From a virus (lineage: Duplodnaviria > Heunggongvirae > Uroviricota > Caudoviricetes), in IMG/VR virus record IMGVR_UViG_2695420523_000015: 13,112 nucleotides of DNA; one strand, given 5' to 3'. The position numbers are program-made. Below are positions 9,001-12,000 of the stretch, piece by piece; position 1 is the first letter of the stretch; the number at the start of each line of letters is the position of its first letter.

Positions 9001-12000
9001 TTGAGCGTCATATTGACGGTTATTTATAGGTGAGTATCATTCTGGAACAGGCATTTTGGGTAACGTGTTCAGGATATTGCGTAGATACATTTCTGGAACG
9101 ATTCCTTTTCAGCAAGTACATCAGCGCATCACGTGGAAACATATAGGTATATTAAAAATGTATAAAATAAGGCTTCAGAAAAACATAACTATATTATTTA
9201 TTTTTATTGTCATGCTGTCATTTAGTTACTGGCTTGCTAATAGTTTTGGTATGAAGTGGGGCGTACTTGCAATTATTGGTTTTTTCTTGGGTTTTACATT
9301 GTCTTTTAGTCGATTTGGGATAGTTGCAGGTTGGAGAGACATGCTGACCATGAGCAACTCATACTATGTAAGGATTCACTTAATTACCATCGCTCTTGAG
9401 GTGGTTTTGTTTACACTCTGCCTGTCATTCAGCCATGCTTTTTTTGGCGGGAAGATGGTTGGGAATATTACAGCAATAAGTATCCCTTTTCTGGTGGGTG
9501 CGTTTGTTTTTGGTATTGGAATGCAAATTGCCGGAGCATGTGCGTCAGGAACACTCTATTGTTGTGGTGAGGGCCGTCCGGCATTTTGGTTTGTTTTGTG
9601 CTGCTATGGTATAGGGACATTAATTGGCAATCACTATAAGCCAGTGCTAAAACCAATTTTTCCCGGAGAAATTATTACCACCAAAGATATTACTGGCGGC
9701 TTGTGGTCAGGCATGTTATTAAGTCTTGTATTTATATTGATACTATACCTTGTTTTTTCATACATTGAGAAAAAACGCACCGGGAAAATATCTAAAATTA
9801 TCACCAGTGGTGGTTCTTTCTGGAAAGATAACAGATTTACTGTTCTTTCTGGCGGGTTAATTATAGCTGTACTGAACTCACTGGTTCTGGCAATGCACGG
9901 TTCAGCATGGACAATTACCGGAGCCATCTACGATACATCCTTGCATACTGCATCATTTCTTGGGGTTTTATCTGATAATTCTGTTATTACTAAACCATTA
10001 TTTCAGAATCCTATGGTTGGGATGTTCGTAGGTGGATTGCTGGGGGCTGCAATGGCTACTGTACTAACGGGAAAAAGGATCAAAGAGCCTCTGACTCGTG
10101 GAAGCATAATGGCAGGAATAACTGGTGGATTGCTTATGGGAACAGGAGGAGCGTATGCTTCCTGTAATTTGGGAGGATTCTTCGATGGAACTGCATCAGG
10201 AAGTTTACATGGATGGTTGTGGATGTTTATGGCTCTGGCTGGCAGCGTAATTGGGATAAATCTTCGGAGATTTTTTATTTGTTCACGCTGTTAAAAACAA
10301 ATAATTGAATCCTGACAGGAAACTGTGGGAAGAATTCTATTATCAGAAAGTAAAGCCCCCTTGTTTTAAATGTATACAAGGGGGATGCATGCTGAAAAAG
10401 CGTACTATCAAAAAACAGTAACTACGCGACGTAGTACTACCTACTCTAGAAAAATTAGCTGAGCAACCGACTATCTGAAATATACTCACAACCTACGAAA
10501 TTTTCGTATTTTAACCTCCGTCCGGTATATACCCCGAATTACGGGGATGTACGGAGTTACTGTACGGAGTTACCGTTGCCAATAATTATTCGCAAGGTGA
10601 TTGTTGATGCGTGATATTCAGCAGGTTCTGGAACGATGGGGAGCGTGGGCGGCAAATAATCGCGAGAATGTGACCTGGTCATCCGTTGCCGCAGGATTTA
10701 AGGGGATTATTCCGGCAAAGATAACATCACGCCCACAGTGCTGTGACGATGATGCGATGGTGATATGCGGGTGCATAGCCCGCCTTTACCGGAACAATCG
10801 CGATCTGCATGAGTTGCTGGTTGATTACTACGTGCGGGGGATGACGTTTATGTCACTGGCGCAAAAACATGAATGCTCTGATGGGACTATCGGAAAGCGG
10901 CTGCAAAAAGCTGAAGGTGTTATTGAAGGAATGCTGATGATGCTGGATGTTCGGCTGGAGATGGATCGGTATGTTGAGCGCGATTCAGTGACGGCATAAC
11001 GCGCATAAAAAAACCGCACTCATGAGGAAACTGCGGCGGAGAAGTCAGACTTGCCAATCAATCATGAAAAACGTAATCGCCTGATAATTATGCCACGAAG
11101 CACGGAAAAACAGTACAGGCGGTGAGATATAGCCCTCAAATGGAGGGAAAATCCCCTAAAGCGAGGGATATCCATCAAAACGAGAGAACATCCCCTAAAA
11201 TGGGGGATTTGCATCACGGAAAGGTGTCCATGACTGCTCTCCGCGCTATCGGGAGAGGCTTCTCGGCGGTTTTCGCTGAACGCATTCAACGTGATGTTGC
11301 CTCAAATACCCCCTATTGTTGCCTCAAATCGACATGATGTCGCCTCAATTTTTTTTGTGATTATTAATTAAATCAATACGTTAAGGCGTTTGAGGCAACT
11401 GAGGCGACACATTTTTCCTATATATATATAAAGCGTGTGAATGATCTGAATGGTGATAATCACCACGCAGACCATCCAGACAACCATAACGAACATCGTT
11501 ACAGTTGGAGCTTTTACCCCGTTGGGGGGGAAAGGTGCACATCTGGATCATCATTATGGTGATCGAGGGTATGGCTAAAATGACCACACCCCACCAGCTT
11601 CATAGAGGATAACCGGAAAAAATCCGGTAAATATTTGCCTGAGTAAGTCATCAAGCGCCTGCTAAATGTGTATAGAAATGTGTATAGGATTGATTTTAGA
11701 ACATGTAGAAATGGCTTTATTACTGGTGTCATGGCTTGTTGTTCTGTTCCCTTCGCCGCTCCAATTTATCTTCGCCTCATCAATCTGCCATTTTTGCTGT
11801 ATCTGATTTTCTATATTATCTTAATTCAATCGCTTCAGACTTTTCGCAATCGCCGTAATATTTCCCCATTTTGTTGTAAATAAAAAGCGTTTACGCAATG
11901 CAATCCTTTTGTAACAACCCAGGTAAAACACCTTATTTTCAAGTTGTTAAATAAGTGGTTATCTACGCTTTTAACAAACGATTGATGGAATATTTTATGA

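Follow-up and report, generated by a model that had tools for sequence, protein, structure and literature searches.

YeeE/YedE proteins are currently understood through two pairs, TsuA-TsuB and YedE-YedF. What, then, can such a protein do when a phage-related island carries its gene alone? Here we address this question for IMG/VR virus record IMGVR_UViG_2695420523_000015 (Caudoviricetes), of which a stretch of 13,112 nucleotides (nt), hereafter the window, was analyzed. The window covers an Escherichia coli genomic island without its left end. A reading of the window made without database searches (the sequence-only reading) had pointed to a gene of low guanine plus cytosine (GC) content, carried as stand-alone cargo, for a YeeE/YedE-type transporter of sulfur or selenium compounds. 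The analysis presented here favors a full-length, two-cysteine YeeE-like protein that would import reduced sulfur species without a partner.

A YeeE-like protein distinct from TsuA and YedE

The gene lies in an open reading frame (ORF) at 9056-10294 on the + strand, in which an ATG at 9158 opens the coding sequence (CDS); this start agrees with the N-termini of homologues.

9158-10294, + strand: two-cysteine YeeE-like (Sulf_transp) inner-membrane protein of 378 amino acids (aa), identified by Pfam PF04143, a sequence match in the PDB, AlphaFold2 modeling with Foldseek, and homologue N-termini

The CDS is identical to RefSeq WP_001451801.1, the "YeeE/YedE thiosulfate transporter family protein" of sister islands. 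The protein matches the Sulf_transp profile PF04143 over the full profile length (residues 51-365, profile positions 2-310 of 310; E 6.9e-41, 141.2 bits against a gathering score of 27). A sequence search of solved structures produced a sole match, Spirochaeta thermophila YeeE (E about 1e-17). An AlphaFold2 model, with 17 clade members as input (mean predicted local distance difference test score 78.7; predicted template modeling score 0.80), had four significant Foldseek matches in the PDB, 6LEO, 6LEP, 8J4C and 8K1R, all of them YeeE (template modeling scores 0.65/0.74); matches ranking below these entries were non-significant. Thus, the full-length profile match and the YeeE fold bear out the assignment to the membrane proteins of the YeeE/YedE superfamily made in the sequence-only reading, and the alignment to YeeE and YedE proposed there as a check yielded this same superfamily rather than a different transporter family. 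Ahead of the YeeE core lies an additional helix (residues 2-30) that begins with positive charge; in the model, this extra N-terminal transmembrane helix, its N-terminus predicted as inside, leaves the core in the TsuA orientation.

The NCBIfam models of both TsuA (65 bits against a cut-off of 400 for NF052577 and 42 bits against 645 for NF041049) and YedE/FdhT (NF033796, 76 bits against 350) scored the protein below their cut-offs. The protein is colinear with E. coli TsuA, with 23% identity over 329 aa, and its BLAST segments against E. coli YedE are permuted, with the two halves swapped (circular permutation). By these comparisons, the island protein is neither TsuA/YeeE nor YedE, the two characterized types that rely on a partner, and belongs to a large, uncharacterized two-cysteine subfamily, of which at least 592 loci were matched in the genome collection.

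Both cysteine-containing motifs that the sequence-only reading had noticed were found, and they align with the two cysteines essential in S. thermophila YeeE: Cys128 of the GACASG motif corresponds to Cys91, and Cys336 of the ASCNLGG motif to Cys293. The third conserved cysteine (C22 in S. thermophila, C25 in E. coli) is replaced with Gly54. Glycine occupies the C22 position in all 37 relatives aligned, which comprise the close clade and 30-35% identical proteins of approximately 400 aa from Pseudomonas, Acinetobacter, Burkholderiaceae, Halomonas and Bacillales, and the remaining two cysteines are invariant among them. All 17 members of the close clade have C128, C136 and C336, and 15 of them also have Cys135. 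All three cysteines are indispensable in E. coli YeeE, whereas the S. thermophila protein requires C91 and C293 and tolerates C22A (PMC7449682).

In the YeeE-YeeD complex, C22 is located at the interface, beside the active cysteine of YeeD, and R28, R98, E101 and E261 touch YeeD (PMC11073785). Of these contact residues, the island protein keeps R28 (R60) and E101 (E138), whereas R98 is replaced with Cys135 and E261 with Lys306. Because R98 faces the cytoplasmic partner, the Cys135-Cys136 pair, placed by this correspondence, should face the cytoplasm. At the periplasmic arginine (R215 in S. thermophila, R223 in E. coli), the alignment of the LC loop is unreliable. Judging from the alignment elsewhere, replacements have affected the third cysteine and a part of the surface where YeeD docks, and the close clade should have the Cys135-Cys136 pair on the cytoplasmic face instead.

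At the 118 positions invariant among the other clade members, the island protein has only 6 deviations, mostly conservative, and it retains all clade-invariant motif residues; by this measure, it is a protein without sign of decay. Compared with TsuA/YeeE (E. coli b2013; S. thermophila YeeE, PDB 6LEO and 8J4C), it thus has in common the hourglass fold, the colinear order, and the C91/C293 and R28/E101 equivalents, and differs in Gly54, Cys135 and Lys306, in the extra N-terminal transmembrane helix, and in the lack of an adjacent TsuB gene. With YedE/FdhT (E. coli b1929, with YedF), it has the Pfam superfamily and a similar length in common, but the halves are circularly permuted, the model score is below the cut-off, and there is no YedF-like gene.

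Absence of a TusA-like partner

When E. coli K-12 YeeD/TsuB, YedF and TusA were used as tblastn queries against the window and two complete sister islands (hereafter L001 and L002), the best E value was 2.6; the same queries detect one another's genes at about 1e-9 in K-12, where tsuB and yedF adjoin their transporter genes. All six frames of the window lack the CPxP motif, and there are no plausible small ORFs within the cargo cassette described below. The left end of the island, missing from the window, encodes in both sister islands only an integrase, a protein of approximately 220 aa without an annotated function, and a small helix-turn-helix (HTH) regulator. The gene therefore stands alone, as the sequence-only reading had it, in the window and in two complete sister islands, and, as far as L001 and L002 show, no partner lies just outside the window.

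The relatives are equally devoid of partners. Among 83 homologous loci (80 species-representative genomes and 3 metagenomic or genomic contigs, nearly all chromosomal), a TusA-like ORF was found within 6 kb in a single locus, where it lies 3 kb off on the opposite strand. Because the other 82 loci lack such a gene within this distance, the orphan state is a trait of the subfamily rather than an effect of carriage on the island, and the implication of the sequence-only reading that a partner had been lost or left behind is not upheld. The gene is monocistronic among unrelated genes in Aeromonas, Citrobacter and another enterobacterium, and the Photobacterium relative is likewise partner-less, as are those in about 70 more distant genomes. 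Clustering of the ORFs within 3 kb in 80 homologous loci revealed no neighbors conserved across the subfamily, only lineage-specific AraC, LysR, MFS and EamA genes. In Aeromonas, the gene has a genome-typical GC content of 62%, and synteny on the EamA side is conserved; in Photobacterium carnosum, its GC content is 34%, against 35% for the genome. Such native-looking composition and conserved synteny fit a metabolic housekeeping role.

A low-GC cargo cassette spread among island variants

The gene lies in a cassette and is bordered there, to the left and to the right, by about 300 nt of non-coding sequence. The features on which the analysis of this cassette relies are the following.

8858-10594, no strand assigned: low-GC cargo cassette, 40.1% GC, approximately 1.7 kb, delimited by blastn breakpoints against L002 and by GC values
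3518-5341, + strand: P4/D5-type primase-helicase, the replication module of the GC comparison, identified by profile matches
9013-9040, + strand: candidate sigma-70 promoter TTGACG-16-TATCAT, matching at 10 of 12 positions, 118 nt upstream of the start codon; predicted only
10356-10384, + strand: 9-bp GC-rich hairpin without a T-run, 62 nt past the stop codon (minimum free energy -21.2 kcal/mol, z -3.0)

L002, a sister island at the tRNA-Gly site on the side of the type III secretion cluster ETT2, lacks the gene and has an unrelated 747 bp in place of 8858-10594. The left breakpoint adjoins iteron-like repeats at 8635-8868, and the right one lies 12 nt before the start codon of a Q antiterminator gene. 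The GC content of the YeeE-like gene is 40.3% (35% at third codon positions), compared to 50.7% (52%) for the primase gene and 53.4% for the block of genes for single-stranded DNA-binding protein (SSB), ProQ and PerC. The contrast with the replication module described in the sequence-only reading is thus real, and the separate acquisition proposed there gains support from YeeE-less sister islands, which delimit the cassette. The candidate promoter and the hairpin, which is possibly a weak or partial terminator ahead of Q, both weak evidence, suggest independent transcription with possible read-through into Q. A scan of the gene leader against Rfam detected no regulatory RNA. The five other alleles of the slot hold only ORFs of 160-240 nt. 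Given these tiny ORFs and the lack of a match to PADLOC defense models, the slot was rejected as a defense hotspot; it is a presence/absence cassette, not a diversified hotspot.

Single-copy, chromosomal and intact, the gene (at least 99.8% identical) occurs in 66 of 5,426 complete E. coli genomes, each time within this island family. The carriers are mostly Shiga toxin-producing E. coli (STEC) and bovine strains, namely, O111:H8, O103:H2 12009, a subset of O157:H7, and bovine isolates. The left flank of the island is present in 118 genomes. The island family occupies at least three chromosomal sites, between yicC and dinD, at tRNA-Gly/ETT2 (yqeG side), and next to clpS (L001, L002 and L089-L093), and genome OkiPb01711 contains two island copies, only one of which has the yeeE cassette.

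Comparison with the O111:H8 island at the yicC-dinD site (L001) suggests how the cassette has moved. Positions 7501-10641 of the window and 19000-22150 of L001 show 1 difference over 3.1 kb; this segment includes a hypothetical gene, two PerC genes, the iterons, the yeeE cassette and the first 35 nt of Q. Outside the segment, there are 58 differences in Q and dozens in 6501-7500, and the left part and right flank of the window resemble the glyU/ETT2 island. Because a near-identical segment is thus bounded by diverging flanks that resemble another island, the cassette appears to have recently moved between island variants by recombination. None of the 5,426 complete E. coli genomes has the exact combination found in the window, in which the yeeE cassette is joined to the glyU/ETT2-side flank; the best coverage is 77%.

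Closest relatives on P1-like phage-plasmids

The nearest relatives, with 66-68% aa identity, are encoded by the Escherichia fergusonii plasmid p18B226LT3, one IMG/VR contig, and Logan contigs. The tail and baseplate genes beside the p18B226LT3 relative are 98.7% identical to those of phage P1, and for this reason we regard the elements carrying the nearest relatives as P1-like phage-plasmids; an assignment of p18B226LT3 as an SSU5-like phage-plasmid was rejected on the same grounds.

7977-9086 of L094, 8001-9110 of L095 and 8001-9077 of L100: nearest relatives on P1-like phage-plasmids, directly after tail and baseplate genes

In L095, the YeeE-like gene precedes a gene for a DnaB-family (P1 Ban-like) helicase. 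The phage-plasmid relatives, too, are low-GC cargo (38% against 48%). In a neighbor-joining tree, the window protein is located on a long branch beside these relatives. On phage-type elements, the clade is represented by 1 IMG/VR contig among 2.9 million viral contigs and by 2 PLSDB plasmids, in agreement with the remark in the sequence-only reading that such a transporter is unusual on elements of this kind. Similarity to all relatives is confined to the coding region, and the non-coding flanks of the cassette, compared in search of a direct donor, match the flanks of none of them.

Proposed function and alternatives

The best functional precedent for the island protein, by analogy, is YedE1E2, a two-cysteine member of the family without a TusA partner that imports zero-valent sulfur in E. 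coli and in which both cysteines are essential (PMC10812762); PmpAB has the same two cysteine positions (PMC11582611). The Cupriavidus and Sinorhizobium importer YedE1E2 and the Serratia PmpAB resemble the island protein in having two conserved cysteines at the C91/C293 positions and in needing no TusA-like partner (PMC10812762; PMC11582611). However, they consist of two polypeptides of approximately 130 aa with one conserved cysteine each and without the central helix, whereas the island protein is a single 378-aa chain; and they are usually encoded beside ArsR/BigR regulators and persulfide dioxygenase genes, none of which adjoin the homologues of the island protein.

With moderate confidence, we propose partner-independent import of reduced sulfur species by this accessory-cargo channel; substrate, direction of transport, expression and host benefit are what we infer from the comparisons described above. 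The protein would be a channel-like transporter of the inner membrane, built on the YeeE hourglass fold, in which Cys336 would be on the periplasmic side and Cys128 in the center. The substrate, entering without a partner, would be a reduced, thiophilic form of sulfur (thiosulfate, or sulfane sulfur/polysulfide), relayed inward from Cys336 to Cys128 and handed on to cytosolic thiols or to sulfurtransferases of the host, possibly by way of Cys135/136. On the island, the gene is accessory low-GC cargo with its own candidate promoter, situated between the iterons and Q, in a cassette that was probably acquired once and has recently spread among island variants by recombination.

Several observations weigh against this proposal. 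The AlphaFold2 model is poorly confident exactly at both cysteine loops. The first cysteine, absent here, is essential in E. coli YeeE, which makes a thiosulfate mechanism identical to that of TsuA unlikely. No rhodanese, persulfide dioxygenase or ArsR/BigR-type regulator was found in the gene neighborhoods, which thus offer no sulfur-metabolism clue. Promoter-like sites in the region do not exceed the number expected by chance, and the Shine-Dalgarno sequence is weak. Furthermore, CysPUWA and TsuAB already serve E. coli for thiosulfate, and what an extra importer would add is therefore not obvious.

The protein could instead be a genuine TsuA-type thiosulfate importer that employs the chromosomal TsuB (YeeD), YedF or TusA of the host in trans. 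All three are encoded in E. coli K-12, used here as a stand-in for the host, and the fold, the colinear order, both cysteines essential in the S. thermophila protein (which tolerates C22A), and the conserved YeeD contacts R28 and E101 are all as this explanation would have it. However, scores of 42-65 bits against TsuA cut-offs of 400-645, glycine at the position of the essential E. coli C25, the replaced contacts R98 and E261, and the 82 of 83 relatives' loci without a linked TusA-like gene make such dependence on host partners unlikely. Selenium-compound transport in the manner of YedE/FdhT, the other substrate considered in the sequence-only reading, draws on the chemical similarity of sulfur and selenium and on a weak similarity to the YedE/FdhT model; with 76 bits against a cut-off of 350, a domain order permuted relative to YedE, no YedF-like neighbor, and no selenium genes in any neighborhood examined, it is unsupported and very improbable. 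Both readings are disfavored by the comparison with the family models.

Two further explanations dispense with sulfur import. If the gene were a passenger that is silent or without function, AT-rich DNA of foreign origin that H-NS keeps off and that travels with the island, the AT-rich cassette, the weak translation signals, promoter signals no better than chance and the long branch to the island protein in the clade tree would be accounted for, and the near-identity of the 66 copies is uninformative on selection; we nevertheless give this view little credence, since the ORF is intact in 66 of 66 genomes, all clade-invariant motif residues are kept, 6 of 118 invariant sites are changed, mostly conservatively, and the cassette has spread between island variants at different chromosomal sites. 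A service to the mobile element itself, be it superinfection exclusion, anti-phage defense or modulation of a helper phage, is less probable still. The accessory position on two kinds of phage-related elements (the island, which resembles a phage-inducible chromosomal island, PICI, and the P1-like phage-plasmids, where the gene follows baseplate genes), the P1-type C4 RNA also carried by the island, and a weak match to a PHROG of unknown function speak for it, but PADLOC defense models gave no match at E values up to 0.01, most clade members are chromosomal and native-looking (Aeromonas, Photobacterium, Citrobacter), the slot is not diversified, its other alleles holding only 160-240-nt ORFs, and the clade occurs on only 1 of 2.9 million viral contigs.

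Partner-independent sulfur import thus remains the preferred interpretation, and a bolder version of it can be formulated. A partner-independent clade, in which the third cysteine and the YeeD "fourth cysteine" are replaced by the in-cis Cys135-Cys136 pair, might have been captured repeatedly by P1-related elements, that is, phage-plasmids and PICI-like islands with P1-type c4/icd/ant immunity genes, as an auxiliary gene for sulfur acquisition or sulfane-sulfur signaling that aids STEC or its phages in the gut. We regard this extension as a doubtful conjecture.

Other features of the island

The island family encodes an integrase, an HTH protein, an antirepressor, a primase or DUF927 protein, SSB, ProQ/FinO, one to three PerC proteins, and Q. 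In the window, the following features were identified in addition to those listed above.

2028-2115 and 2509-2596, + strand: two full-length Rfam matches to C4 antisense RNA (P1/P7 immI type), 72.9 and 70.3 bits, 481 nt apart
7951-8422, + strand: two PerC/ANR-family genes, 7951-8253 and 8255-8422, left of the iterons, identified by profile matches and sister annotation
8635-8868, no strand assigned: iteron-like repeats AAAAAGTGCGCAAAAAA, 4-5 copies, non-coding, right of the PerC genes and at the left edge of the cassette
10607-10999, + strand: antiterminator Q family gene (Pfam PF06530, E 8e-52; PHROG 79; RefSeq annotation)

The AAAAAGTGCGCAAAAAA repeats are a candidate replication origin for the island primase-helicase. 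Both C4 RNAs are located within 1928-2657, a stretch without a blastn counterpart in L001 and L002. Together with Rha/AntA-like ORFs upstream and an Icd-like gene annotated there in sister islands, this region looks, from its gene content, like a P1 immI-like module with a duplicated c4. A 507-aa ORF at 838-2361 (+ strand) starts as an AntA/AntB-like antirepressor and continues across the C4 RNA region; it is probably not one real gene. At the equivalent position in L002, RefSeq has an odd 1143-nt "Icd-like" CDS.

No phage late genes lie downstream of Q, where a 39-nt tandem pair (11124-11201) is followed by chromosomal ETT2-side DNA from about 11590; the target of Q might be a helper phage. 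No attachment-site repeats of at least 12 nt from the tRNA-Gly or yicC-side junction were found in the window or the sister islands, and for this reason the right end of the island is placed by homology only, at about 11573-11590. A glycoside hydrolase family 15-like ORF at 11955-13034 (+ strand) is not part of the island but of the flank that borders the ETT2 type III secretion cluster, and the last 89 nt of the window (13024-13112) have no match in the sister locus L002.

Of the PICI-type traits, the primase, PerC and antirepressor genes are present in the window, which lacks the left end, and the P4-type integrase and small HTH (AlpA-like) genes were seen only in L001 and L002. Compared with PICIs of int-alpA-primase-PerC organization (EcCIEDL933, EcCICFT073 and EcCIMP1; PMC11773190), the island thus has the primase, PerC and antirepressor in common, with the integrase and HTH genes in the sister copies. 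Unlike these PICIs, for which YeeE-like cargo is not described, it carries such a gene and adds SSB, ProQ/FinO, Q and C4 RNA; in its gene content, it is satellite-like.

Implications

A literature search retrieved no paper on the island gene or on YeeE-type cargo in PICI-like or STEC islands. The gene was already annotated generically in RefSeq, and the new element, a modest one, is the recognition of a full-length, two-cysteine, orphan YeeE-type protein carried as cargo. If the gene is silent or redundant, the result is an annotation refinement only. Otherwise, a widespread, full-length, two-cysteine, partner-less subfamily would show that the YeeE fold can work alone, which fits the case of YedE1E2. 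The gut offers thiosulfate and sulfane sulfur, and such a gene could matter there. Its presence in an island family typical of STEC (O157:H7, O111:H8 and O103:H2) and on P1-like phage-plasmids provides a simple, testable case of sulfur-transport cargo on phage-related elements.

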